The notes below the pieces were generated by a model, which was not told the origin of the DNA, did not search any database, and saw only the letters and a program-made list of their open reading frames with translations. A stretch of DNA of 64,000 nt, from positions 29,836 through 93,835 of the forward strand of contig SCSN01000009.1 of the NCBI GenBank assembly GCA_004322205.1, read 5' to 3'. A program made the position numbers and the translations under genes. Positions 4,442-61,017 of the stretch are shown here, one piece after another. The stretch comes from Patescibacteria group bacterium (GTDB lineage Bacteria; Patescibacteriota; Minisyncoccia; Phycocordibacterales; Zambryskibacteraceae). How positions within the stretch are numbered: position 1 is the stretch's first letter; every line of letters begins with the position of its first letter.

Positions 4442-4943
4442 ATTGTTACCCAAATACGCGTTTTTTATTGCTGGAACCGGCAAGCACAAAGATAGACTGC
4501 AAGCTTTTGACCGCGCTCTGCTTGCTGCCGGCCCTGTTGCTCATAATTTAGTTAGCGTTTCGAGCATTCTTCCTGCTGAATGCAAAATCATACCCGCGGG
4601 GAAAGGTTTTCGTTTGCTGACTCCTGGCCAAATAACTTTTTGTGTTATGGCAAGGCAAGATACAAACCAAAAGAGAAGAATAGTCTCGGCCGCTGTTGGA
4701 GTGGCCAAAACCAAGGCGTCGAAAGAATTTGGATATATATCCGAATACCATGGAAATGCGTCTAGTAAATATACTGCAGAGGGAGCCGCAAAAAGATTAG
4801 CCGTTGAGATGCTCGCTAAGAAACTTGCGATTCCGCCCAGTCAACTCAATCTGAAGTTTACAAAGGCGGTGGCTGCTTCTATCAAACAACCGGGTGACGA
4901 TAAATGGGTTTGTGCTCTTGCGCTTTGCGTGTTTGTTACCTGA
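4425..4943 (+). CDS. pdaD: pyruvoyl-dependent arginine decarboxylase
   Basis: 172 aa; AFDRALLAAG...NLVSVSSILP self-cleavage Ser-Ser motif, architecture typical of PdaD/AaxB. Confidence 0.7.
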   Translation: MSTQNKLLPKYAFFIAGTGKHKDRLQAFDRALLAAGPVAHNLVSVSSILPAECKIIPAGKGFRLLTPGQITFCVMARQDTNQKRRIVSAAVGVAKTKASKEFGYISEYHGNASSKYTAEGAAKRLAVEMLAKKLAIPPSQLNLKFTKAVAASIKQPGDDKWVCALALCVFVT

Positions 4944-6723: not shown

Positions 6724-7563
6724 ATGCCTAGGTCTGACAATGACATGAAGATAAGTATGGTCGGTAAAATACTTATCGCTGATTTTGCTATCGCACTGGG
6801 AGTTGTTGTCTGGCTATATTTGTCAAATGTCACAAGTTCGATACTTATAGATCTCTACGGTGTGCTTTTCTTGGGATTTATCCCCGTTGTAGGTGGAGTT
6901 AACGGATTAATAATTGCCAAGCGGTGGGGATCGTTTAAGAGTGCCGTTGGTAGAGCTGTTATTTTTCTTTCACTGGGATTAATTTCTTGGGGACTCGGGA
7001 CCTATGTTTTTTCTGGGATCTATAACTTTTTGTTGCACGTTGAAGTTCCTTACCCGTCTATAGCGGATGTCGGATACATTTTGAGTTTACCATTGTGGGC
7101 TGTTGGAATGATACAGCTGTCCCGCGCCACTGGAGCGAAATACGGATTGCGTTCGAAGAAAGGCAAGGCGATACTTTTTGCTATCCCAATATTAGTTATA
7201 CTTGTTTCGTATTACCTTCTTGTGATAGTAGCTCGCGGCGGGTCAATTGATCTCTCTGGTGGTGGAATTCCAAAAATATTCTTCGACTTGGCTTATCCGA
7301 TTGGCGATGTGATAATTTTGACATTAGCCACTCTTGTCTATGGTCTATCTTATAACTACTTCGGGGGCATCTATAAAAAATCTATTTATGTGATACTTCT
7401 TGGTTTCGTAATTATGTATGCTGCCGATTTTCTTTTTTCCTATACTACAACCATTGAAATATGGCAGCCGGCAGACTGGGTAGATCTATTGTTCACAACG
7501 GCAGTATTTATATTGTCGATGGGTGTGACAATGCTTGACTCGCGAAAAGCTCTCGGAGCCTGA
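6724..7563 (+). CDS. hypothetical integral membrane protein
   Basis: 279 aa, about 8 hydrophobic segments. Confidence 0.4.
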   Translation: MPRSDNDMKISMVGKILIADFAIALGVVVWLYLSNVTSSILIDLYGVLFLGFIPVVGGVNGLIIAKRWGSFKSAVGRAVIFLSLGLISWGLGTYVFSGIYNFLLHVEVPYPSIADVGYILSLPLWAVGMIQLSRATGAKYGLRSKKGKAILFAIPILVILVSYYLLVIVARGGSIDLSGGGIPKIFFDLAYPIGDVIILTLATLVYGLSYNYFGGIYKKSIYVILLGFVIMYAADFLFSYTTTIEIWQPADWVDLLFTTAVFILSMGVTMLDSRKALGA

Positions 7564-7869: not shown

Positions 7870-9273
7870 ATGGCTGTTATAGGAAAAGAAGGGGAAAACT
7901 CGCTAAACCACGAACAGGAATTAAAGACTGTTACGGAAAGCCTTTATAAGCAAAACCTTGAGCTCGCCGTAAAAAACAAAACTCTTTCGCTTCTCCGCCA
8001 GCTCTATCAAATAAGCATTCTAACTCTTGAGCCGAAAATACTGGCAGAAAAACTTGGGGACACAATCCGAGAAACATTTGAATACGAATTAGTTGGTTTT
8101 TTCTCCTTTGACAAAGAAGAAGACACATTCATACCAATGTATTTTTCGCAGTCGGATCGCTGTGCCAAGGCTAGTTCCCGGGCTGAAGTATCTTTCATTT
8201 CTCTTCGGCTCAATCAGGTCTCTCGACACAACTTGTTTGCCCAAGTGCTCAAGGGCAGCATGGCTTATACCGAAAGCTTTCAGGATGTTTGGGGAGAAGC
8301 AATTTCAGGAAAAGATTGGACGGTAATTCAAAATGAATCTCGCGTCAAGGGCGTGCTTTTCTTTCCGCTTTTGATAGATGAAAAAGTCATTGGTGTATTA
8401 ACAATTGCTCTCAACAGAAGATATAAGGAGCTCATCCAATTTGAAAAAGATTCAATTCAGAGTTTTGTCAATGTTTTGGCCGTGGCACTTGATCGCGCTT
8501 ATTTGTATCAAAAATTAGGAGTTACAAACAAAGAATTGGCCGAAGCAAATGACCGCTTGAAAGAGTTGGACAGATTAAAATCTGAATTTCTTTCTTTTGC
8601 CAGTCATCAGATTCGGGCACCTCTCACCGCCATTGGTGGCTATGCTTCCATGCTCCTGCAGGGAGATTTCGGAGAGATGCCGGAGCAGATACGAAATTCG
8701 GTGAAAACAATAGATATATCTTCAAAGGAGCTTATTAAAGTTGTCAATGATTTTCTTGATATTTCCCGGATAGAACAGGGAAGAATGAAGTACGAGATGA
8801 CAGATTTTGATTTTAGGAAAGCGATTGAAGAAATTATTGATGAGTTTCGACCCAACATGGGGAAAAAAGGACTTTCCTTGGAATTTGAGGCTGCTGAAAA
8901 ATTATCATATATGATAAGTGGGGATGCGGGTAAAATAAAGCAAGTTGTGGGGAACATAATTGATAATGCCATTAAGTACACAGAACACGGGGGAATAAAA
9001 ATAAGTCTAGAGCGCACAGGCAGTAATATACGGCTTGCAGTCTCCGATACCGGCATTGGTATTGCTCTCGAAGATATCCCAAAACTTTTTTCTAAGTTCA
9101 GCAGGTCGAGAGATGCGCACAGAACTGACGTTACCGGCACAGGGCTCGGTCTCTACCTTGCCAAGCAACTCATCGAAGCTCATAAGGGCCGCATTTGGGT
9201 AGAGTCGGAAGGAAGAGGGCACGGCTCAACATTCTTTATCGAACTTCCAGCAAACGTATACCCCGTGAGATAA
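7870..9273 (+). CDS. cytoplasmic sensor histidine kinase (coiled-coil/GAF-like N-terminus, HisKA, HATPase_c)
   Basis: H-box SHQIRAPLTAI; G-box GTGLGLYLAKQL; no TM segment; no response regulator adjacent. Confidence 0.85.
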   Translation: MAVIGKEGENSLNHEQELKTVTESLYKQNLELAVKNKTLSLLRQLYQISILTLEPKILAEKLGDTIRETFEYELVGFFSFDKEEDTFIPMYFSQSDRCAKASSRAEVSFISLRLNQVSRHNLFAQVLKGSMAYTESFQDVWGEAISGKDWTVIQNESRVKGVLFFPLLIDEKVIGVLTIALNRRYKELIQFEKDSIQSFVNVLAVALDRAYLYQKLGVTNKELAEANDRLKELDRLKSEFLSFASHQIRAPLTAIGGYASMLLQGDFGEMPEQIRNSVKTIDISSKELIKVVNDFLDISRIEQGRMKYEMTDFDFRKAIEEIIDEFRPNMGKKGLSLEFEAAEKLSYMISGDAGKIKQVVGNIIDNAIKYTEHGGIKISLERTGSNIRLAVSDTGIGIALEDIPKLFSKFSRSRDAHRTDVTGTGLGLYLAKQLIEAHKGRIWVESEGRGHGSTFFIELPANVYPVR

Positions 9274-9407
9274 TAAAGTTTATGTACTACCCCTTGATGC
9301 GGGCAGTATCTAGGTCTAAAGAGATGATTAGCCAGTAGCCTATTGAGTATCTCATGGGGTATAGCTTGTCATAGGAGACTTGTGCGTCTTTCAAAAAAAG
9401 CTCTGTT

Positions 9408-10406
9408 TTGCTATCATTTTTCGATATGAGCGTCAAAAAAATTCTTCTTTCCGGGATACAACCGAGCGGACGGGTTCACATTGGGAACTATTTCGGCGCC
9501 ATGAAGCAGTTTGTTGACCTTCAAGATACCTATGAAAGTTACATTATAATTGTCGATCTCCACGCCCTGACTTCCACCCAAAATCCTGAAGAACTTCGAC
9601 AAAACATCATTGATCTTGCCATTGACTATCTGGCCGTCGGCTTGGATCCGAAGAAAATTACTCTCTATAAGCAATCTGATGTGCCGCAAGTGACCGAGCT
9701 GGCGTGGATTTTTGAATGTATTACCACTATGCCGTATCTCTCCCGCGCTCACGCCTTTAAAGACGCGCAGACGCAGGAAAAAGAAGTGAATGTCGGAACC
9801 TTCAACTACCCAATGCTCATGGCGGCTGACATTCTGATTCAGGACACGGACATCGTTCCGGTTGGTCAGGACCAGAAACAGCATGTTGAAATTTCCCGCG
9901 ACACCGCCGAGAAGTTCAATCGAACTTTCGGTGAAACGTTTAAAATTCCAGAGCCGTATATTCTCCCGTCTGTGCAAACCTTTCCGGGCACCGATGGACA
10001 GAAAATGAGCAAGAGCTACGGAAACACCATTGGTCTTTTCGCCTCGGATAAGGAAATCAAAGAAGCGGTAATGAAAATTCCCACCGATTCAAAAAGTGTT
10101 GACGAGCCGAAGAACCCGGAAACTGACAACGTCTTCGCTTTGCACAGATTTTTCACCGCAGGACCGGAGTTTGACGAATTGCGCGATCGCTACGAGGCCG
10201 GCGGCATCGGCTATCAGGAGTCGAAAGAGATTCTTGTCAGAAATATCAACCGGTTCATCGCTCCCTTGCGCGAGTCACGGGGAAAACTTGAGAAGAATAT
10301 GAAGATGGTTCTGGAGGTGCTCCGTGAGGGAGGGAAGCAGGCGAGCAAGCGGGCAGAGGAGAAAATGAGCGAGGTTCGAAAGCGCATTGGGATAACTTTA
10401 CCGTAA
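9408..10406 (+). CDS. trpS: tryptophanyl-tRNA synthetase
   Basis: GIQPSGRVHIGNYFG (HIGH-type) and KMSKS motifs; 332 aa. Confidence 0.9.
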   Translation: MLSFFDMSVKKILLSGIQPSGRVHIGNYFGAMKQFVDLQDTYESYIIIVDLHALTSTQNPEELRQNIIDLAIDYLAVGLDPKKITLYKQSDVPQVTELAWIFECITTMPYLSRAHAFKDAQTQEKEVNVGTFNYPMLMAADILIQDTDIVPVGQDQKQHVEISRDTAEKFNRTFGETFKIPEPYILPSVQTFPGTDGQKMSKSYGNTIGLFASDKEIKEAVMKIPTDSKSVDEPKNPETDNVFALHRFFTAGPEFDELRDRYEAGGIGYQESKEILVRNINRFIAPLRESRGKLEKNMKMVLEVLREGGKQASKRAEEKMSEVRKRIGITLP

Positions 10407-23385: not shown

Positions 23386-23856
23386 TTACCTTGCATTTCC
23401 CCATACATTCCCATTGTTATCGTAGGTGTAGGGAGCATTGTAGATTTTGGTGACGGCATGAGGATTGGTGTAGCCGGCATCAGTATAGGTGTAATTCCCT
23501 TTGTCGCTCTTCCTTGTGATGTTCCCTATGGCATTGTATGTAATGTCATGTCTGAAGTTAGAGCCGTAGATTGCAACAGTTGAGGAAGCGATGATGAGCC
23601 TATTCAGATCATCGTAATACAAGTCCAGCGTCTTTTTGGAGTTTGTCCCCGATTGATCCACGATCTTTGTTATATTCCCCACCGCATCATATGTATAGGT
23701 GATGTCTTGCAACACATCAGAGGAAGAGGCGTTGACGTAGTTTATTTCCAAATACGGGTCAGACGATGTACCCGCTTGTTCGGAGCTGTACATGTGTATA
23801 CCGTGGAAAACAGTTGGAGTGGAGCTGGCGATGTCATGGTCGGCTTCTTCTGTCAC
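23386..23856 (-). pseudogene. orphan internal RHS/YD-repeat fragment
   Basis: 156-aa ORF about 90% identical to an internal segment (ADHDIASSTP...YTYDNNGN) of the giant RHS gene about 5 kb away; lacks both core ends. Confidence 0.75.
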
Positions 23857-25800: not shown

Positions 25801-26906
25801 GGCTTCTTTGAGTTAAAACTAGCAATGAGACTCCTCAGGGCTGATATGAATTGATTCATATTAAACGGCCTCCCATTTACCTGTCCTGAACCTTGAGCTG
25901 CCGGCCTACTTGAACCGCCAGAGGAGCGTCGTAATTCCTGGGCCCCCATACCCGGAAGTGTTTGCAGGGCCTCTTGCCCAACCGCATATCTAGCACCTTT
26001 ATCCAGAAGTGATGATGATGTTTTCTTGAATAAATTTGGCAATCCTTCTTCTGCCAATTCATCAAATGGTGATTGTCCAGCTGCAGATTTGAAGAGTTTT
26101 CCACCTATCCCCGCAGAAACTCCGGTTAGTACAGCTTTAATTGGATCAATAGGTCTTCCCCCAGCATAATCTTGAATTACCGAGCCTGCGGCCGCTATTA
26201 CTCCCGAGGTCACAGCTTTTGTTCCAATTTGCACTGCGGATGCAGCACCGAAACTTACACTGGTTACGTATTCAGAAAACGAAGACCTTGGCGCAAACTG
26301 TTGCCAACCCACAACACTCGCAGCTTGATTTTCCCTAATATCAGAATACCAAGTACTGTAAAACGCTACTGTCCCCCCTATTAAAGCCAGGATACAAGCA
26401 GGGCACAAGCCATTCGGATCTTTGTTAACAATAGGGTTATTATCCGCATATGCATAGCTATTCAATGTCTGTGGATTTGAGAGAAAGAATGATTGATCCT
26501 GTCCGGTTAATTTCTTTAATCCCTGAGAATATCCAATCGCCAAGAAACTCGGATCCTGACTCACAAACCTCCCAATACGTCCATCATAGTATCTGGCATT
26601 GAGGTATGAGAGTGCGGTTTCAGTGTCATACTCCTGCCCTATGTATTTCCTTGATTCATTGTATGTTGTTTGTTTCTGATCTGTTCGGAGTTCACCGAAG
26701 GGGAAGTAGTCAATGAGTTCACTCACTGTGCTACTTGCGTCTGTAATTACCGTTGAACCTTGAAGGTGGTCAGTGTGCACGTAGTATGTACTCGTTCCTG
26801 TATTTGTTCCTCGTACTGAAGCTAGGAGGGTATTGTTAGCGTAAACGTGGTGGTCTCTCGTACTAGAATAATTAGTCATAAATAGTGCCTGACCCCATAA
26901 TCCCAT
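25797..26906 (-). CDS. orphan RHS C-terminal module (last YD repeats + DPNGL + CT domain)
   Basis: N-terminal about 150 aa are roughly 85-90% identical to the 3' core of the giant RHS gene (YYVHTDHLQGSTVITDASST...YYDGRIGRF); then DPNGL followed by the divergent CT CPACILALIGG... Confidence 0.7.
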   Translation of the reverse strand: MGLWGQALFMTNYSSTRDHHVYANNTLLASVRGTNTGTSTYYVHTDHLQGSTVITDASSTVSELIDYFPFGELRTDQKQTTYNESRKYIGQEYDTETALSYLNARYYDGRIGRFVSQDPSFLAIGYSQGLKKLTGQDQSFFLSNPQTLNSYAYADNNPIVNKDPNGLCPACILALIGGTVAFYSTWYSDIRENQAASVVGWQQFAPRSSFSEYVTSVSFGAASAVQIGTKAVTSGVIAAAGSVIQDYAGGRPIDPIKAVLTGVSAGIGGKLFKSAAGQSPFDELAEEGLPNLFKKTSSSLLDKGARYAVGQEALQTLPGMGAQELRRSSGGSSRPAAQGSGQVNGRPFNMNQFISALRSLIASFNSKKP

Positions 26907-27410: not shown

Positions 27411-30400
27411 ATCGCCGAGAAAACCTTGCGGCTGCTTGTTGCAACCTAATAACTTGCGCCTGTAACGAAGACACGTCAGAAGCAGAGAGACTTAATCCGT
27501 TGCTCCAACCAGAATATGAAGCTCCACTTGAAGGTTTGAAGTATGTATGCATTGTGACACCCCCAGTATTTTGATTCATGCTGAAAGACGCGAAGGAATT
27601 TGTTCTCGTGTCATAAGTGTTAATTCTTCCTCTGGTTTTATCAAACCTAAGTGGATACTTACCACTAATAGCATCTGTAACAAACTCACGAGCTGATTCT
27701 ACATACTCTTTTGTATTTGTTGTTCCAAAGTCAGCAGCATGATCTGCCGCGTGTTTTGTAGCATTTGCAGCGCGATTCGCCATAGATCCTTTGCTCCAAA
27801 CGCCTTCAAAATTAATATTTGGCTTCGGCGAATTTGGCACTGGTCTAGCACCGACGGTTGCGAGTGGCGCAGCATCAAAGTAAATCTGTGGTTGACTAGC
27901 CGCTGCATATGCTTCTGGTTCGTACACAGGATCTGGAGATAGGGGACGAGGCATAAACAGTAACATTCCAATAATCCCCCATGGTGTAGGTGGAACTTCT
28001 AATCCCTGTGGATCCTTGTTTACAATTGGGTTATTATTTGCATAAGCATAACTATTCATTTGCTGGGGATTGGAGAGAAATATTTCTAAGTTTTGAGTGC
28101 TTAATCGTTCAAGGAGCGAAGAACCAATTTCTAAAAACACCGGATCCTGACTGGCAAACCTCCCAATACGACCGTCATAGTATCTGACATTGAGGTAAGA
28201 CAATGCGGTCTCTGTATCATACTCCTGCCCTATGTATTTCCTTGATTCATTGTACGTTGTTTGCTTCTGGTCTGTTCGGAGTTCTCCAAAGGGAAAGTAG
28301 TCAATGAGCTCATTTAGAGTTGATGAGGCGTCGGTAATAACTGTAGAGCCTTGGAGGTGGTCGGTGTGAACGTAATAAGTGGAGGTGCTTGTCGTACTGG
28401 ATCGAATGGAAGCCAGTAACATTCCGTTGCTGTAAATATGCTTGTCTCGTGTAGTGGTGGCTGATACGTCATAGTACATGTTGGGGTAGTAGGTGGCGGT
28501 AGTTCCCACCTGATACTTGACTCTAGCTCCAGCATGATCGTAGGCCATCTGCATCGTACTCGTCGCCTTCGTTATCTTTGTAATCCAATTGTTGTAATTC
28601 CAAGTACTTGTCGCTATCCCCCCTATCCCCAGCATATTCCCATTGTTGTCGTAGGTATAGGGAGCGTTCCAGACTTTGGTAACAGCCTGGGGGTTAATGT
28701 AGCCAGAATCAGTGTAGGTGTAATTCCCTTTGTCGCTCTTCCTCGTAATGTTCCCTATGGCATTGTACATCACATCATGTCTGAAATTGCTCCCGTAGAT
28801 GGCAACAGAGCTTGAAGCAATCACCAATCTATTCAAGTCATCATAGTAGAGATCCAGTGTCTTTTTCGAATTTGTGCCTGATTGATCCACAATTTTGGTT
28901 ATATTCCCCACCGCATCGTAGGTGTAAGTGATGTCTTGCAACACATCAGAGGAAGAGGCGTTGACGTAGTTTATTTCCAAATACGGGTCAGACGATGTAC
29001 CCGCTTGTTCAGAGCTGTACATGTGGATGCCGTGGAAGCCGGGTGGAGTGGAGCTGGCGATGTCATGGTCGGCTTCACGGATGGCGATGAGGGTGGTGGA
29101 GGTGGGAGAAATCCAGCTTGTTCCGGTGGCATTGAGGTACCATTTGTTGTAGCCAATGAGAAAGTCAGCGCTGTTTTTTCTTGTTGCTCCCTCATCGGGG
29201 TTATTGATAGTCATTCTGGAATAATCGGAATTTTGTAGGAGTGTGGTAGAGGCTTGGTTGCTTTTAACAATTGCCATATTACCTCCATCTTGCTTGGCGT
29301 AGACATAGATATTAAGAGATGCAGATGTAACAGTAGCGTTTGAGCCAAGAGAGGAAGTGTCAAAAACGTAGAACTGACGAGAATTACCAAGATAATAGCC
29401 AAAATCAGTATATGCTCTGGCCGTCCCTTGATATGAATCCCCTCCATAGTAATTGGCAGATGTTGTAGCTCGAATATATGACCAAGGGCGACATGCACAA
29501 GCATCGCCGCCATATGCGGAATCGTCGATAAATGCCAAGCCGCCGTCTCCAGAGCCTGAATATGGGCTAAGGGTGAGATCGGTGCGGACCGGAAAGACTG
29601 TCGTTTTGAAGTAAGAGGCCGGGAGAATCTTGGTAACTTGAATGTTTGTACCTATTTTCTCGTAACGAATTGAGATGGGCCGTAAATGCGCTCGATTGGC
29701 GTCAGAATCATCTATGTACGGGGCGCGAATATACGAAACTCCTCCGCGGTCATCAATGATTTTTGCAGGATTGGCGGAAACAATTGTTCCGGCTTGGCTT
29801 AATCTTTTACCTTCTACCTCAATGTCCAAATCGCCTGAACTGGTGATTTCAAATAGTATTTCGTAGTCAGTGCCCGTGGCGAAGGTTTGGAGCGTCTGAC
29901 TATTTGCAATCACAAACTCTTTGGTAAGTGATACATCACCAAGCGACACTACCATGTCGGCGCCGGACCCCAGATAATTTTTATATGTAACTCTCTTCCC
30001 TGCCCACATGGGATCGGTCAATTCCTTTTGGACCGTAGCCGATGAAGTTGCCGCCTGCGGGAATGTAAGTGAGAGTATTTGACCACCGTTTTCAAAAGTG
30101 ATGGGAGAGTTTGTCGGCGATTTATCAAGTGTCGCTTTATACGGAGCCTTGTACATAAGCCAATTGTTTTGGCCGTCAATGAGGATAGTGTCTATCTCCG
30201 AAAGATTTCCTGCGCTGTCCCGATAGAAGATGTCGCCGGAGTAAAACTGCCCTTGGCGGATTTCATTGCCTTGGGGGTCAAAACCTATGAGGTAAGTCTT
30301 GCTTCTGGAAGTTCGCAGGTCATCTTTTTCAAACGGTTGATTGAGTATATAGTTCCCGTTTTCATCCACGACAGACTGCTCCGCCCGCAGATAGTCCTCC

Positions 30401-47008: not shown

Positions 47009-49792
47009 CTAAATCTGCGGGGCTATTTCCTCATTAGGAATAGATGATTTTTGATATTTTTTCATAACTTCTGCTTCAACTTCTTCAGCTGGACGGCCAA
47101 AACGCTCAAACGACGCCTGTTTGATTGTCTGCGGATCACTTATACCCTCTTCTGCTACAGATATTGTTTCAATGCTAAAGGGCCGCTCCGGCCTGCCGTT
47201 TACAAGAAGTTTCAGGTGGGCGCGGCGATTTTCGATATTGACGAGCCCTTGGGCGGTAAAGACCGGCTCAAACTGCTTTGCCAGATATTCAGCATCATCG
47301 CTTCCCACCCGGAAGGCAGCAATGGTGCCAACATTTCCAAAGACGGCGTTTTTAATGTTTTCCTCAAGCTGACCGATGAATTGGTGGGCAATAGTGAGAG
47401 AGAGCTTGTACTTGCGAGCTTCGGAAAGAATGGTGGCTATGGAATTGGTTGTGATGTTTTGGAATTCGTCGATATAGAGATTAAATGTCGGCAATCCGTC
47501 TGCTGGCGGACTAGCGAGTGAGTCCACGCGCGAGAGCGCCGCCATCAGAATTTTGCCGACGAGAACCAAACCAATTAGATTAGCGTTGATGTCACCGAGG
47601 CGGCCTTTTGAAAGATTGACCAGAAGGATTTTGCGATTATCCATAATCTCCCTAAAGTTAAAGGCAGAGTGTTCTTGAGCAACAATGGGACGCATGATGT
47701 CGTTTGCCAGAAAGACGTCAAACTTGCTTGTGATATACGGCACGATATTGGCAAGGGCCGCCTCGCCGCCAGCTTTTTCGGCAACTTCCTTCCAGAACTG
47801 CACCACTACCGGGTTACCGCAGCGCGAGAGTTTGAGCTGGCGGAATTCCCTATTGGACAGCACCCGAGAGACATCAAGAAGTGTCGAGCCGCTTTCCGGG
47901 TCTTCAATGACAAGCATTGCCGAATTGCGGAAATATTGCTCAAACATCGGCCCCATTGACTCCGGCACCGCCCCATAGAGTTTCTGGAAGATATTGAAGA
48001 GCTCGTTTACCACAAATGTTTTTTGCTCGGGGAAACGCGGATCGTACTCGAGCATATTGAGCCCCATCGGTTTCTGTGTATAGGCTGGATCGAAATAAAT
48101 CAGGTCTTGAACGCGCTCCGGCGGAATGTGCCGCAGAACATCTTCAATATCAACTCCGTGCGGGTCAATCATGGCCACACCTTGACCTCGGGCGATATCC
48201 TGAATAATCATGTTCTTGAGAAGAGTGGACTTCCCTGTTCCCGTTTGACCAATGGTGTAGAAATGACGCAAGCGGTCGTCATCGGTAATATATACTTTCC
48301 GCTCAACTCCTTGGAAACGATTGACGCCAAGAAGAGTACCCTCGGCGGGAAGATTAACCGGCACCGGGGCATCGTGTGCTCGAAGAGTGCGAAGTTGGGC
48401 CACGCCGGAAAGTGCTTCAGTATGAAAATGCACAAGCGAAGTCAGCTCTTTGAGATTGAGTGGAATTGCTTCCTTTGGCAAGAACAGCCGGAAAGCGAAA
48501 TGCCGCAGAAACCGCTTTAACCGACTGCCAGAGGCTCTCTTAAAGCGCAGTGACAGCCCTTGGGGATTGTCAAACTGCTTAAAAGCTGATTCCAAGTCGC
48601 CAAGGATTGCTTCGGCCCGTTCCCGGCTTGCCGCCGAAGCCGCCAAACGAAGGGAGGCCGAGACAATGGGGGCGGATAATTTTTTCTCCACTCGCTCTAC
48701 CGCCGCCTGATCAACGGTCTTTGGTTTACCGTCATCTTTCTTCTTTTTCTCCGAAGAGAAGAGTTCTTTGAAAAGACCGAAGGCCTCTTCGGTAAAGGTG
48801 GTAGAAATTTTTGTGGCTTCTTTTACCGGAGCACCTTCCTTTATTTTCTTTAGCGCATAACCAAATCTTTTGGCGTAGATCTCACCGGCAGGTTGGATAA
48901 GGAGTTGTAAACTCGCCCCTTCCCCTTCCCGATTAATTTTGGAAAAGACCTGAAGAACAATGTTGAGCGGATCGTGGTCGAATTCGTCATAAGTTTTAAG
49001 TGGAAAAACCGGACTGCCTTGGGCAACGGCATATGAGCCGGCAGAAGCACCTTGCTCGTTAAAAATGTTGTAGTCATTGACCCGTTCGCGCAGTTGAGCT
49101 CCGGGGAAAATGGAAAGAATTTGTTTTTCAAAGAGAGCTTTTTTTGATTCGGGAACTGCGGCGTAGAAAACAAACTCCTCACTGCCGTTTTCGTTGGCGA
49201 TTTCCAGAACCAAATAATTTTCCGCCGGCTTTTTATCCGGAGAGACAGCAAGCATCCCCGCGTAAAACTGCTCCATTCCCGAGAGAATTTCTTTAAGCGT
49301 ACGCTCACGCTCGTTGCTTGCCTGCGGGATTACAATCTCAAAAAGTGCCAGCGACAGGGCTTTGTAGAGTGGTTTTCGTTTAGAAATACCCTTCACTTCA
49401 AAGCCGCTCTTAATATACTGTACCAGGTAGCGATGGAGATCATCCTCGACGTGAATGTCGCCGAGTTTTTCCAGCACCGAAAGAGCATTCTTGATTCCCT
49501 TTTCATTGACAAGTTTGATGAGTTCCTGAACGCGGCTGTCGTGGCGCTCCGGCGCCAAATTGAGAGCGGCAGCTTCAACCTGCGCGCCCGGTAAACGAAA
49601 CGATTCATCGAGGATTTGTTCGCTCGGTATTTTCTTGTACTCCTGTATCTTTTCAGTAATAACAGTCTCACGATCGGAGGCAACGCCCTGCTCGGTCAGC
49701 TCCCGCTCTCGCCGAATAACTTCTCGAGTGACATGCGATAGCTCTTCTTGCGGACTGCGTAAATACTCCCCGGAAGATGAAGGTTTCTCCAT
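47009..49792 (-). CDS. VirD4/TraG/TrwB-like (type IV coupling protein family) P-loop ATPase
   Basis: 927 aa; Walker A GQTGTGKST; Walker B LYIDEF; KLSLTIAHQFIGQL...GNVGTIAAFRVG motif typical of coupling-protein/FtsK-HerA-type ATPases. Confidence 0.5.
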   Translation of the reverse strand: MEKPSSSGEYLRSPQEELSHVTREVIRRERELTEQGVASDRETVITEKIQEYKKIPSEQILDESFRLPGAQVEAAALNLAPERHDSRVQELIKLVNEKGIKNALSVLEKLGDIHVEDDLHRYLVQYIKSGFEVKGISKRKPLYKALSLALFEIVIPQASNERERTLKEILSGMEQFYAGMLAVSPDKKPAENYLVLEIANENGSEEFVFYAAVPESKKALFEKQILSIFPGAQLRERVNDYNIFNEQGASAGSYAVAQGSPVFPLKTYDEFDHDPLNIVLQVFSKINREGEGASLQLLIQPAGEIYAKRFGYALKKIKEGAPVKEATKISTTFTEEAFGLFKELFSSEKKKKDDGKPKTVDQAAVERVEKKLSAPIVSASLRLAASAASRERAEAILGDLESAFKQFDNPQGLSLRFKRASGSRLKRFLRHFAFRLFLPKEAIPLNLKELTSLVHFHTEALSGVAQLRTLRAHDAPVPVNLPAEGTLLGVNRFQGVERKVYITDDDRLRHFYTIGQTGTGKSTLLKNMIIQDIARGQGVAMIDPHGVDIEDVLRHIPPERVQDLIYFDPAYTQKPMGLNMLEYDPRFPEQKTFVVNELFNIFQKLYGAVPESMGPMFEQYFRNSAMLVIEDPESGSTLLDVSRVLSNREFRQLKLSRCGNPVVVQFWKEVAEKAGGEAALANIVPYITSKFDVFLANDIMRPIVAQEHSAFNFREIMDNRKILLVNLSKGRLGDINANLIGLVLVGKILMAALSRVDSLASPPADGLPTFNLYIDEFQNITTNSIATILSEARKYKLSLTIAHQFIGQLEENIKNAVFGNVGTIAAFRVGSDDAEYLAKQFEPVFTAQGLVNIENRRAHLKLLVNGRPERPFSIETISVAEEGISDPQTIKQASFERFGRPAEEVEAEVMKKYQKSSIPNEEIAPQI

Positions 49793-51145: not shown

Positions 51146-51180
51146 AACAAACAAAATCCGCCCCATGCGAGATGGGGCGG
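51146..51180 (-). terminator. terminator-like hairpin
   Basis: CCGCCCCAT-gcgag-ATGGGGCGG with a T-run on the minus strand. Confidence 0.4.
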
Positions 51181-51200
51181 ACAGCGGATGGATCGGTGAG

Positions 51201-51734
51201 CTAGCCGAGCTGGGCTACTGTCTTGACAACCCGGAAGAGAAGCTCATCAGAGCAACGCCGCGGCTGATTGCCGTGCTCGCTCACGAAGACCGTGAACTTG
51301 AGATCGAGCTGTTCCCGGCTCAAGACGGCATGGGTGAGCAGACGTTCGTCGCACTCGTATAGGTTACGAGTTGTGCCATCCGCACAGAACATACCGCTGT
51401 AGTAAGACGTGGGCTCCCAGATTCTCCCCGCAAAGTACTGTTCAGTGTTGTTGTCGTGCGCTTCCACGAAAAAACGCCGCGCCGGCACCGACCTTCGACC
51501 GCGATGTGGCATTTTGCCCTCCGAGGAACTGTTTAGTTTCCAAGGAAAAGAATACAACTTTCCGCAGATTAGATCACAAATTGAAACTTGGTCGGAAGTG
51601 AGCGCAAAATCTGGGCGCGCCGAAGGCGCGCTGTATGGCGAGAGAATGAAATCCGTCTTGCGGGCGCGGGCGAATTCGGAGGGCGGGCGGAAAGCAAGAA
51701 ATGAGATCTTAATAGTTTCTTTTTTTGAATCCAA
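51201..51734 (-). CDS. hypothetical ORF whose 5' end is an inverted copy of the recombinase 3' end (possible rearrangement remnant)
   Basis: N-terminal about 45 aa (ISF...PPSEFARARKTDFILSPYSAPSARPDFALTSDQVSICD) are identical to the recombinase C-terminus; the remainder is unique. Confidence 0.3.
   Translation of the reverse strand: MDSKKETIKISFLAFRPPSEFARARKTDFILSPYSAPSARPDFALTSDQVSICDLICGKLYSFPWKLNSSSEGKMPHRGRRSVPARRFFVEAHDNNTEQYFAGRIWEPTSYYSGMFCADGTTRNLYECDERLLTHAVLSREQLDLKFTVFVSEHGNQPRRCSDELLFRVVKTVAQLG
51574..51708. repeat. inverted repeat copy 1 (about 130 bp)
   Basis: Reverse complement matches 53147..53272 except for a 9-bp indel. Confidence 0.8.
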
Positions 51735-51743
51735 AACCTATTT

Positions 51744-53288
51744 ATGAATAAACCAAAATATTTTCTCTATGCTCGCAAGAGCACCGAAGATGATGATAAA
51801 CAAGTGATGAGTATTCCGGCTCAACTTGTGGAGCTTCGTGAATTTGCGAGCAGAGAAAATATTGAAATTCTTGAGGAATTTCAAGAGTCGAAAAGCGCAA
51901 AGAGCCCGGGACGAGAAGTGTTCGGCGAAATGATGATGCGTATTGAAAAAATGAATGGTGTAGGCATTCTCGCGTGGCATCCTGACCGACTAGCGAGAAA
52001 TAGTATTGACGGAGGACGCATCATTTACGCCGTAGACACTTCTAAAATTGTCTCTTTGCGTTTTCCGACATTTTGGTTTGAACCCACACCGCAGGGGCTC
52101 TTTATGTTGCAAGTGGCGTTCGGACAGAGCAAATATTACTCCGACAATTTGAAGCAAAATGTCGAGCGAGGTATGCGCCAAAAATTGCGACGAGGAGAAT
52201 GGCTGACCCGCGCTCCATTCGGGTATGTGAACAATCCAACCACGCGCAATATCGAACCTGATCCGGTGAAATCTAAAATTATCGTGCGAGCGTTTGGTGA
52301 ATATGTTAAAGGAACACATACCCTCATTTCGCTGTCGCAATTTTTGGCTGACCACGGTGTTGCTCAAAAGTCCGGAACGCCACTTGGCAAAGCTTCCGTG
52401 AAAAGGATATTAACCAATCGTGCGTACTTGGGATTTACCAAACATCGTGAGGAGTATTTTCCCGGAAGCTTTGCGCCAATTCTTTCTCCGACACTATTTG
52501 AAGCTGTGCAAAAACAACTTTCCGTGCGAGCGCATCCGAGGCATAGCAAAATATCTCACAATTTTCCTTTCACCGGACTTTTTCGTTGTGGGGAATGTGG
52601 CTCGATGATAACCGCTCAATGGTGTACTGGAAAAATGGGCGGTCGCTATCGCTATTATCGTTGTACGAAAAAGAAAGGAAAATGTTGTCAAGGATATTTG
52701 CAGGAAGATGCGCTCGCATTCCAAGTTAAGGAACAGCTTCAATCAGTGTCGCTTCCCGAAGCGTGGGCAGATTATATGCTCAAAAAAGTGGAAGTTTTTG
52801 AGCATGACGAAATCCACGCTTCGGGAAATCGTCTCGGACAGATGAAGGAAGATTTGAAAACGCTTGAAGCTAAGCTCGACGCACTCGTGGATTTATACTT
52901 AAACCACGATATTGAGCGCGACATATATCTGACAAAAAAGGACGCGCTCATGCGTCAAAAAAGCTCGCTTCAAGCAAAATCTTCATCTGCCCGAGCCGAG
53001 AGAAAGAATTGGGTCGAACCCCTGCGGAAGTGGATTTTGGATTCAAAACGCGCGGGGTTTCTCGCTACGAGTGAAAATCTCCACGAGATGCGAGATTTTC
53101 TTCGTTCCTTCGGAACGAACCCCGCGCTGAAAGATAAAACTATTTCGATCTCATTTTGCCCGCCCTCCGAATTCGCCCGCGCCCGCAAGACGGATTTCAT
53201 TCTCTCGCCATACAGCGCGCCTTCGGCGCGCCCAGATTTTGCGCTCACTTCCGACCAAGTTTCAATTTGTGACCCTATCGGGATTTGA
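51744..53288 (+). CDS. large serine recombinase (resolvase N-domain + recombinase domain + zinc ribbon)
   Basis: YARKSTEDD catalytic-Ser N-terminus, DRLARN motif, CGECGSM...YYRC zinc ribbon, C-terminal coiled coil; 514 aa. Confidence 0.85.
   Translation: MNKPKYFLYARKSTEDDDKQVMSIPAQLVELREFASRENIEILEEFQESKSAKSPGREVFGEMMMRIEKMNGVGILAWHPDRLARNSIDGGRIIYAVDTSKIVSLRFPTFWFEPTPQGLFMLQVAFGQSKYYSDNLKQNVERGMRQKLRRGEWLTRAPFGYVNNPTTRNIEPDPVKSKIIVRAFGEYVKGTHTLISLSQFLADHGVAQKSGTPLGKASVKRILTNRAYLGFTKHREEYFPGSFAPILSPTLFEAVQKQLSVRAHPRHSKISHNFPFTGLFRCGECGSMITAQWCTGKMGGRYRYYRCTKKKGKCCQGYLQEDALAFQVKEQLQSVSLPEAWADYMLKKVEVFEHDEIHASGNRLGQMKEDLKTLEAKLDALVDLYLNHDIERDIYLTKKDALMRQKSSLQAKSSSARAERKNWVEPLRKWILDSKRAGFLATSENLHEMRDFLRSFGTNPALKDKTISISFCPPSEFARARKTDFILSPYSAPSARPDFALTSDQVSICDPIGI
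53147..53272. repeat. inverted repeat copy 2 (encodes the recombinase C-terminus, ends at the tRNA-Glu 3' end)
   Basis: See copy 1. Confidence 0.8.
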
Positions 53289-53344
53289 ACCCGAGTTTCC
53301 AGGATGAGAACCTGGCGTCCTAGACCGGGCTAGACGATAGGGCC
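53271..53344 (-). tRNA. tRNA-Glu (anticodon CUC)
   Basis: Minus-strand sequence GGCCCTATCGTCTAGCCCGGTCTAGGACGCCAGG-TTCTCAT-CCTGG...CGGGTTCAAATCCCGATAGGGTC folds as a cloverleaf; anticodon loop TTCTCAT; T-loop TTCAAAT; no encoded CCA. Confidence 0.8.
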
Positions 53345-53410
53345 GCGCAGAACAAGAATACAGAATCAAGAACGAAGAATCAAGAAAACCTCTTCTTCAA
53401 AATCACTATT

Positions 53411-53432
53411 TTCTAATTCGTACGAATTAGAA
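53411..53432. repeat. perfect 22-bp palindrome TTCTAATTCGTACGAATTAGAA
   Basis: In the AT-rich gap between tRNA-Glu and the murF stop. Confidence 0.6.
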
Positions 53433-53508
53433 AATAAGGAATGACGTTAGTAAGGTTAGACTTTATTGGTTTATTCATTACGTCTGGTCTGCGCTTGTTC
53501 TGTGCAGT

Positions 53509-60692: not shown

Positions 60693-61017
60693 TTCTTGAG
60701 CAAAGTGATTAGAAAATCATCACCCAGCACTTACAACAGAATCTTTTATCCTTTGCTTTAATCTGGATCTCGCTTGGTCGTAATCTTTCAACTTTCTCTC
60801 TCGCCATCTAGCATCGCTTTCAGATAAATATTCTTCGTAGTATATCAACTCCCAATTCCTTCCGTGCTCCTTAGCTCGGCGGCGGAGATTATCAGTATAG
60901 CCATAATATAGCTCACGCCTGCCATACTTATACTTCAGGCAGTAAACATAATACATGTAAGTGCTGGGTTGTAGAGATTAAATAAAAACTGCGTTTTTAT
61001 TTAATCTCTACAACCTT
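60693..61017 (-). mobile_element. candidate IR-flanked GIY-YIG mini-element
   Basis: CCCAGCACTTAC immediately 5' of the ATG and GTAAGTGCTGGG forming the last four codons; the same arms plus a shared about 60-nt leader recur upstream of mraZ. Confidence 0.4.
60720..60956 (-). CDS. small GIY-YIG nuclease-family protein
   Basis: 78 aa; YYVYCLKY...GYTDNLRRRAKEH pattern (GIY ... YIG, R, E). Confidence 0.7.
   Translation of the reverse strand: MYYVYCLKYKYGRRELYYGYTDNLRRRAKEHGRNWELIYYEEYLSESDARWRERKLKDYDQARSRLKQRIKDSVVSAG

Follow-up and report, generated by a model that had tools for sequence, protein, structure and literature searches.

Within a 64-kb stretch of a Patescibacteria genome (contig SCSN01000009.1 of assembly GCA_004322205.1; the whole stretch analyzed, 64,000 nucleotides [nt] long, is referred to here as the window), a gene coding for a large serine recombinase (LSR) of 514 amino acids (aa) lies between two long inverted repeats, and its 3′ end overlaps a tRNA-Glu(CUC) gene on the opposite strand. 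From the comparison with related loci described below, we consider it probable that this feature is the recombinase module of a family of tRNA-targeting integrative elements widespread in Patescibacteria. The repeats bracketing the gene are called X arms here (X on the left, X′ on the right), and a second type of arm, conserved outside the left X arm in relatives, is called the M arm. The features of the locus are collected in Table 1.

Table 1 Features of the recombinase locus in window coordinates
Feature	Position	Strand	Remarks
177-aa open reading frame	51201..51734	-	TTG start; no Pfam match
103-aa open reading frame	51201..51512	-	own ATG at 51512 and GGAGG ribosome-binding site
M-arm remnant GATTAGA	51567..51573	+	sole M match left of the arm (flank alignment)
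Left arm X	51574..51688	+	perfect 115-nt copy; putative X half of the family's internal inverted attP
Inner left repeat	51689..51725	+	9-nt insertion not in the right copy, followed by 27 nt at 81%
LSR gene, 514 aa	51744..53288	+	Pfam PF00239, PF07508, PF13408
Inner right repeat, diverged	53130..53156	+	81% to 51699-51725; codes ...KDKTISISF
Right arm X′	53158..53272	+	perfect 115-nt copy; codes recombinase residues ~472-509; with the tRNA, putative attL-type junction
Common core TCA	53270..53272	.	tRNA nt 71-73; common to all three site types in complete relatives
tRNA-Glu(CUC), putative integration target	53270..53344	-	Rfam RF00005, 58.8 bits; ARAGORN gives 53269-53344

The recombinase gene and its relatives

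The two X arms of the window are 100% complementary over their 115 nt. A 32-mer from the arm occurs exactly twice in the window, compared to no occurrence in 100 shuffles, and no further long inverted repeat was found in the 64 kb. Because the 27 nt inward of the 9-nt insertion in the left copy are still 81% complementary to the right copy, the ancestral duplication at this locus would have spanned ~150 nt, comprising the arms and a diverged inner part; the inner left repeat ends up 19 nt upstream of the recombinase ATG. Each arm contains a weak promoter-like match facing inward, at 51581-51610 in the left arm. An earlier note on this DNA, made from the sequence alone, had described inverted repeats around the recombinase, and these are real and reach further inward than it stated. 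Two of its details needed correction: the perfect right arm covers 3 nt of the tRNA (nt 71-73) rather than 1-2 nt, and the overlap between the open reading frame (ORF) and the tRNA is 19 nt with the stop codon counted, not 18 nt. The ORF continues for 16 nt past the right arm, with its last five codons and stop lying antisense within the tRNA. The tRNA gene looks intact, with nt 1-70 as the T half-site, and an Rfam scan of the window and 11 related loci found only tRNAs.

The catalytic domain of the recombinase matches PF00239 (Resolvase; E 6.7e-21, model positions 2-145 covered), and the residues YARKST at positions 9-14 place the nucleophilic serine in a Y-x-R-x-S context. This domain is followed by PF07508 (Recombinase; residues 174-260) and PF13408 (Zn_ribbon_recom; residues 275-332). 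Judging by this domain content, the ORF product belongs to the large serine recombinase family; among relatives of solved structure, SprA of SPbeta is the nearest (E 1e-8). The dN/dS ratio relative to the loci L001-L003 is ~0.09, and the gene appears to be intact and still under purifying selection.

The family scan used one genome per species, and 80 loci, labeled L001 onward, were fetched. At least 577 loci were confirmed in species-representative genomes, all of them from assemblies of Patescibacteria or the candidate phyla radiation. The recombinase itself has thousands of close homologs (66-96% identity) that vary in C-terminal length, and many of these are on contigs of only 1.7-2.5 kb. 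A complete inverted-repeat pair surrounds the gene in 64 of the 80 loci, with the right arm in the position equivalent to that in the window. The pair is cut by a contig end in six loci and missing from the other 10, eight of which are truncated by contig ends. In the 64 loci, the arms have a median length of 117 nt (range, 53-152). The two arms of a locus are 100% identical in 26 of the 64 loci and at least 98% identical in 43, compared with a median of ~58% between loci, and because of this the arms appear to evolve fast yet in concert within each locus.

Near-identical elements were found in unrelated contexts and at many different tRNAs. Two genomes carry two copies each, and these copies are diverged (65-85% related) and located at different tRNAs. 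IMG/VR contained no relatives of the recombinase, and the only relatives on plasmids were below 27% identity; a phage or plasmid origin was rejected on these grounds. Exact-protein look-ups with the window recombinase, MGMT, and MurF matched no contig. Full-text searches of a literature collection found no description of this element family, which is apparently a so far undescribed family of small mobile elements very widespread in Patescibacteria.

Target sites and architecture of complete elements

Wherever the flank is readable, the right arm nearly always abuts an opposite-strand tRNA gene, or a tRNA-like T arm, starting from tRNA nt 71. More than 12 tRNA species serve as targets, among them Glu(CUC/UUC), Pro, Ser (three anticodons), Ile, Leu, Ala, Gly, Arg, and Val. 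In both arms, the outermost 2-3 nt change together with the tRNA and read TC, CC, GC, or GG, with A or G as the discriminator. The right arm and the tRNA together appear to form a genuine attL-type integration junction, that is, one joining a chromosomal attachment site (attB) to that of an element (attP).

The earlier note had proposed searching relatives for an empty tRNA-Glu site, and two were found. The murF-tRNA-Glu(CUC) site is occupied in the window, L001, L006, L014, L039, and L050 and is free of the element in L083 and L084, where the gene order mraZ-rsmH-ftsL-ftsI-murF-tRNA-Glu(CUC) is followed directly by a terminator. As in the window, an MGMT-like gene on the same strand is retained downstream in L083. 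Since syntenic relatives have the tRNA without the element and L083 keeps this gene, the left-hand genes of the window are the ancestral downstream neighbors of the tRNA, and the element is an insertion. The empty site of L083 reads ...CCCCGTGAGG/TCA/TGGTAAC (...GTGAGG/TCA/TGGTAAC, with slashes marking the limits of the core).

What lies outside the left arm in the relatives is not host DNA but the conserved M arm. Its motif, AAGTTCGCGCAAAGG, is followed by 13 nt and then by the X arm, and it is located within a conserved hairpin-rich region of ~170-250 nt (folding z = -3.97, folded as DNA). In L001, the M arm is seen as a conserved noncoding stretch at 4602-4830, with equivalents of 170-290 nt in L002, L004, L007, L016, L017, L066, and L075. 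It carries two CACCACGC..GGAGCGTRCG hairpins and a long terminal hairpin that keeps its pairing although the stem sequence varies from one subfamily to another; the M arm has no Rfam match. Such a stretch might contain accessory binding sites, a promoter, or an RNA.

A second inverted pair, formed by M arms of 164-286 nt that are 98-100% identical, was found in seven loci (L011, L017, L020, L066, L075, L078, and L085), where it encloses 1.8-4.4 kb of variable cargo genes. On the strand of the tRNA, the order is tRNA(1-70)-core-X, recombinase gene (antisense), X′-core′-M′, cargo, and M-core-flank, the last being the old trailer of the tRNA. The cargo differs among elements and includes an AAA_15 ATPase with a methyltransferase, a zinc-finger protein, a secreted beta-helix/PKD protein, a cytidine deaminase, and proteins without a family match. 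At the distal junction, five of the six loci compared have M followed by TCA or CCG, corresponding to tRNA nt 71-73, after which the sequences diverge; that of L085 likewise reads M/TCA. Both attL and attR are present in L017, L020, L066, L075, L078, and L085. The outermost junctions are in direct orientation and have at most 3 nt in common, and the core matches the empty site in L083. A three-site comparison in L017, L020, L066, L075, and L078 showed that the TCA or CCG core is common to all site types.

These outer junctions look as expected from conservative integration by a serine recombinase, in which attP would be M-core-X and attB the tRNA end with its trailer, and the internal site would be an intact copy of attP in inverted orientation. 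The caution in the earlier note that the repeats are not a simple attL/attR pair was well placed, as the left arm corresponds to half of this second, internally carried attP. From the core, we infer a crossover at TC or CA within tRNA nt 71-73, with an exchange of 2 nt. Because the trailers differ between sites, recognition would depend mainly on the T arm and acceptor end of the tRNA. The sole element shared by the half-sites is an AAGTTY/GGTTCG-like motif, whose distance from the core is ~20-26 nt in M, compared with 14-19 nt for the tRNA and 9-14 nt for X. Between M and the tRNA, this gives a 6-nt offset, which recalls the offset of the zinc-ribbon motif between attP and attB of LI integrase, an analogy that may serve as a lead only.

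Many contigs (in the range L006-L080) begin ~50, 123-125, or 137-138 nt before the left arm, that is, one assembler k-mer (k55, k127, or k141) into M. Contig starts of this kind fit breaks in a de Bruijn graph if a genome contains M more than once, which makes it probable that the two-module form is common.

The complete element at L085:11500-21100, on a 640-kb JGI contig, has X arms of 115 nt and M arms of 286 nt. Genes for a ResIII helicase, an SLFN_AlbA_2 protein, an N6/N4 methyltransferase, and a second resolvase-domain protein of 577 aa lie in its neighborhood, and these surroundings suggest stacked mobile elements. In L016, a second pair of 212 nt (6844-7049 and 9224-9429; identity, 90%), whose arms resemble M and end in X-like 11-nt termini, encloses 2.2 kb beside a neighboring tRNA-Ser(GCU) without a recombinase gene, and this may be a nonautonomous derivative.

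The first ~15 codons of M′, read in the frame of the recombinase, code for a conserved peptide (C-[DEG]-x-[IL]-[IL]-[ST]-F-A-R-[TN]-[FY]-F-[EQ]), with a stop soon after. Over 56 distinct sequences, the variability of this M tail peaks at third codon positions (0.93 versus 0.60 and 0.50 bits), and 33% of the codon differences are synonymous in the recombinase frame, compared to 8% and 6% in the other two frames. The small ORF running through the left arm has no conserved start codon in the relatives and cannot account for this constraint; the constraint must therefore arise because the recombinase ORF itself continues through X′-core′-M′ and thus through attP. This would place attP in the 3′ end of the integrase gene, and integration there would swap the native tail for antisense-tRNA codons. 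Among the best 120 homologs, at least 81 end in an antisense-tRNA tail (…CDPTGNRTP…) and 12-13 end in an M tail. L015 has a flipped layout, in which the tRNA and X are followed by the start of the recombinase gene on the same strand. With both orientations present in public assemblies, the recombinase cassette appears to be invertible in the family. The earlier note had offered an invertible or a hairpin-ended cassette; the first part of this suggestion holds, and no evidence was found for hairpin ends.

The window copy has attL only; the cargo, attR, and all of the M arm except 7 nt are missing, and neither the M motif nor the M hairpin motif was found anywhere in the 64 kb. At the position of the GATTAGA remnant, the closest relatives (L001-L004; 96-97% protein identity) read …GGATATGATTAGA/TCAC, and their ...AAGTTCGCGCAAAGGATATGATTAGA/TCAC comes with a further ~200 nt. 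The window cassette is thus probably a stranded, immobile remnant of an element. Since M and attR are missing, it should be unable to excise, or to flip by means of its own enzyme given the usual half-site requirement; homologous recombination between its identical arms is possible. L003 retains 58 nt of M, which means that truncation of M has happened more than once. An origin by palindrome-mediated deletion was rejected, as reading the sequence to the left of the 7-nt remnant revealed neither a second GATTAGA nor a TCA followed by the trailer. In L003 (1400-2689; 97% recombinase identity), murF is located on the other side of the element and points toward it, unlike in the window, a hint that the surroundings of the element underwent a larger rearrangement there.

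Proposed mechanism and rival explanations

We propose that the free element is a circle carrying two inverted copies of attP (M-core-X). The LSR would join one of these to attB, the 3′ end of a tRNA gene, with a cut within nt 71-73. The products would be attL (tRNA-core-X), beside the recombinase gene, and attR (M-core-old trailer), at the far end, and the element would resupply the last nucleotides of the tRNA. The second, inverted attP would come to lie between the recombinase gene and the cargo, leaving the gene bracketed by two X arms and the cargo by two M arms. The recombinase ORF would natively run through X and the core into M, and integration would swap its last ~15 codons for antisense-tRNA codons. 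Recombination between the X arms would flip the gene and restore the M-encoded tail. In such a circle, no junction would be distinct from the internal attP.

Several points weigh against this model. No circle, excision product, or within-population orientation polymorphism was observed, and the evidence is all comparative. Recombination of attL with attP is not known from canonical large serine integrases, and flipping catalyzed by the enzyme would be noncanonical. Flipping may therefore be RecA-type recombination, which between identical 115-nt arms would explain it too and would also account for the homogenized arms. Furthermore, a distal M arm is within reach in only 7-8 of the ~34 loci whose left flank extends for at least 3 kb, and many elements may lack attR or have longer cargo. 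The distal junction of L011 has no TCA core, the right junction of L085 has no recognizable tRNA, and M and X have no clear dyad symmetry, as a classical attP would have. Finally, the model does not account for the loss of the M arm from the window copy.

A further possibility, toward which we are doubtful, is that flipping of the cassette acts as a toggle that switches the integrase between a form with the M tail and a form with an arbitrary antisense-tRNA tail. If true, the M-tail form would belong to the free element, a circle resembling the 2-micron plasmid, and the antisense-tRNA-tail form to most integrated copies, and the toggle would control the stability or directionality of the enzyme without a separate directionality factor.

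It is improbable that the cassette is instead a dedicated Hin-like inversion switch that phase-varies neighboring genes, its proximity to a tRNA being incidental to mobility. A switch of this kind would fit the location of the gene within its own invertible segment, as in Hin of Salmonella, the existence of both orientations, the bracketing of the cargo by inverted repeats as well, and the weak inward promoter-like match in each arm. However, the enzyme is a 514-aa LSR and not an invertase of ~190 aa, and the outermost junctions are direct and follow attL/attR logic with a 3-nt core at tRNA sites that also exist empty. The occurrence of near-identical elements in unrelated contexts and at many tRNAs also argues against a switch, and the cargo differs per element, therefore leaving no conserved gene to be regulated.

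We give very little credence to an autonomous transposon resembling an insertion sequence (IS), with the two 115-nt arms as its ends (a 1.7-kb unit, 51574-53272), that inserts beside tRNA genes. The recombinase ORF does extend into a terminal repeat, which is seen in many insertion sequences; the window copy is made up of this unit only, and many database contigs of 1.7-2.2 kb carry the gene alone. Such short contigs are nevertheless accounted for by assembly breaks at repeats. Moreover, relatives have the conserved M arm rather than host DNA outside the left arm, the first ~45 nt of M are constrained as coding sequence in the frame of the recombinase, and even the window keeps a 7-nt remnant of this arm. 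The element is present as a single copy in the 64 kb, and where a genome has two copies, these are only 65-85% related and at different tRNAs. Host DNA does not lie directly outside the left arm in relatives, nor are the copies in the two-copy genomes near-identical, and an IS bounded by the arms was rejected.

Least credible of all is that a single past inversion or duplication left an inert scar in this genome, which the earlier note had kept in view as an inversion, or that the arrangement is an assembly artifact: although the window copy looks immobilized, without the M arm and attR, and a segment between repeats can be misassembled in orientation, the same architecture recurs in 64 of the 80 independently assembled loci from many studies, the window arms are 100% identical compared with ~58% between loci, and the gene is under purifying selection.

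Known systems and other features of the window

The proposed tRNA-targeting integrative element shares several properties with the large serine integrases phiC31, Bxb1, A118/LI, TP901-1, and SprA of SPbeta. The domain order is the same (Resolvase, Recombinase, and zinc ribbon, then a helical region), and the junctions have only a 2-3-nt core in common, as expected for a 2-nt staggered cut. In contrast to these systems, attP would lie inside the 3′ end of the integrase ORF, with a second, inverted attP carried within the element, and there is no conserved gene for a directionality factor, since the cargo varies. Sequence identity to characterized large serine integrases is low (E 1e-8 for SprA), and no plasmid-borne relative reaches 27%. 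For enzymes of this class, the 3′ end of a tRNA gene is an unusual target. The departures from described serine-integrase elements are the target at the tRNA 3′ end, the putative attP in the integrase ORF, its duplicated inverted copy, which gives rise to two adjacent repeat pairs, and the missing conserved accessory gene. The element would behave like a small tRNA-integrating islet.

In the Hin system, the recombinase gene is located inside the segment that is inverted, between inverted sites. Our family resembles Hin, Gin, Cin, and Pin in its serine chemistry and in having the gene in a segment bounded by inverted sites and found in both orientations, a resemblance of layout only. Those invertases are ~190 aa long, act on 26-bp sites, need an enhancer and Fis, and do not integrate DNA. 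The enzyme described here is instead a 514-aa protein that includes Recombinase and zinc-ribbon domains; the arms around its gene span 115-150 nt, and the outer junctions are of the attL/attR type.

In fuselloviruses of the SSV1 type, attP lies inside the integrase gene, and integration occurs into a tRNA gene. Both properties recur in our family, but the SSV1-type enzyme is an archaeal tyrosine recombinase whose gene is split in two by integration instead of exchanging a short tail, and inverted repeats are absent. The putative circle of our element is reminiscent of the yeast 2-micron plasmid (Flp/FRT), being small and having two unique segments separated by long inverted repeats that contain the recombination site, so that one segment would be flipped relative to the other by recombination. 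Flp, however, belongs to the tyrosine recombinases, and the 2-micron plasmid replicates autonomously and serves copy-number amplification. Unlike in that plasmid, no replication gene is conserved in our family, in which the circle itself is presumptive.

In mycobacteriophage BPs, attP is located in the 3′ part of the repressor gene, and integration removes a degradation tag and thereby switches the state of the protein (PMC4557955). The likeness to our family is that integration alters the C-terminus of a protein, here by swapping the last ~15 residues of the recombinase. Unlike in this family, the gene concerned in BPs is that of the repressor, integration is carried out by a tyrosine recombinase, and no spare attP is carried in inverted orientation. 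By analogy with BPs, a functional role of the tail swap is conceivable, in which integration would change the C-terminus of the integrase and flipping would restore it.

Patescibacteria make up a large share of bacterial diversity and have tiny genomes with few described mobile elements. The present family occurs in hundreds of their species and appears to be one of their main means of gaining small accessory cargos. It offers a large set of natural serine integrases targeting a short, universally conserved tRNA feature, in which the core dinucleotide apparently sets the tRNA that is used. For recombinase biology, the points of interest are an attP that would be embedded in the coding sequence of its own enzyme and the duplication of that site in inverted orientation. 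For metagenome assembly, two adjacent repeat pairs would explain the recurrent contig breaks beside tRNA genes in Patescibacteria.

Two overlapping minus-strand ORFs lie to the left of the recombinase gene. The 177-aa ORF, noticed earlier, does exist, and its first ~53 codons repeat the tail of the recombinase. This ORF is probably not a gene and would represent a chance in-frame fusion between the tail-coding frame of the left arm and the separate 103-aa ORF, because it begins with TTG, has no conserved start codon in relatives, and its distal 103 codons have their own ATG and GGAGG. A small left-arm protein copying the recombinase tail, as a possible directionality factor, was rejected, since the start codon and ribosome-binding site are not conserved and many loci have no start at all. 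The 103-aa ORF showed no similarity in 84 related or syntenic loci and may be either chromosomal or former cargo. A terminator scan placed a terminator-like site inside it (51473-51489), and a terminator-like hairpin after it (51156-51182) precedes the MGMT-like gene.

Farther to the left, 47009-49792 on the minus strand codes for a 927-aa protein with signatures of a TraG/VirD4-type coupling protein. Because a 61%-identical homolog in L081 has a similar position downstream of the dcw cluster, this appears to be a conserved chromosomal gene and not cargo. Direct repeats with 79-85% identity, several kilobases apart (23398-23847 and 28626-29076; 26416-26783 and 28010-28374), probably reflect a tandem family of paralogous genes. 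A near-perfect palindrome of 50 nt (96%) is located at 60967-61015, and a perfect 30-nt palindrome (…TTTTCTAATTCGTACGAATTAGAAAA…) lies at 53407-53436, between the 5′ side of the tRNA-Glu gene and the end of murF.

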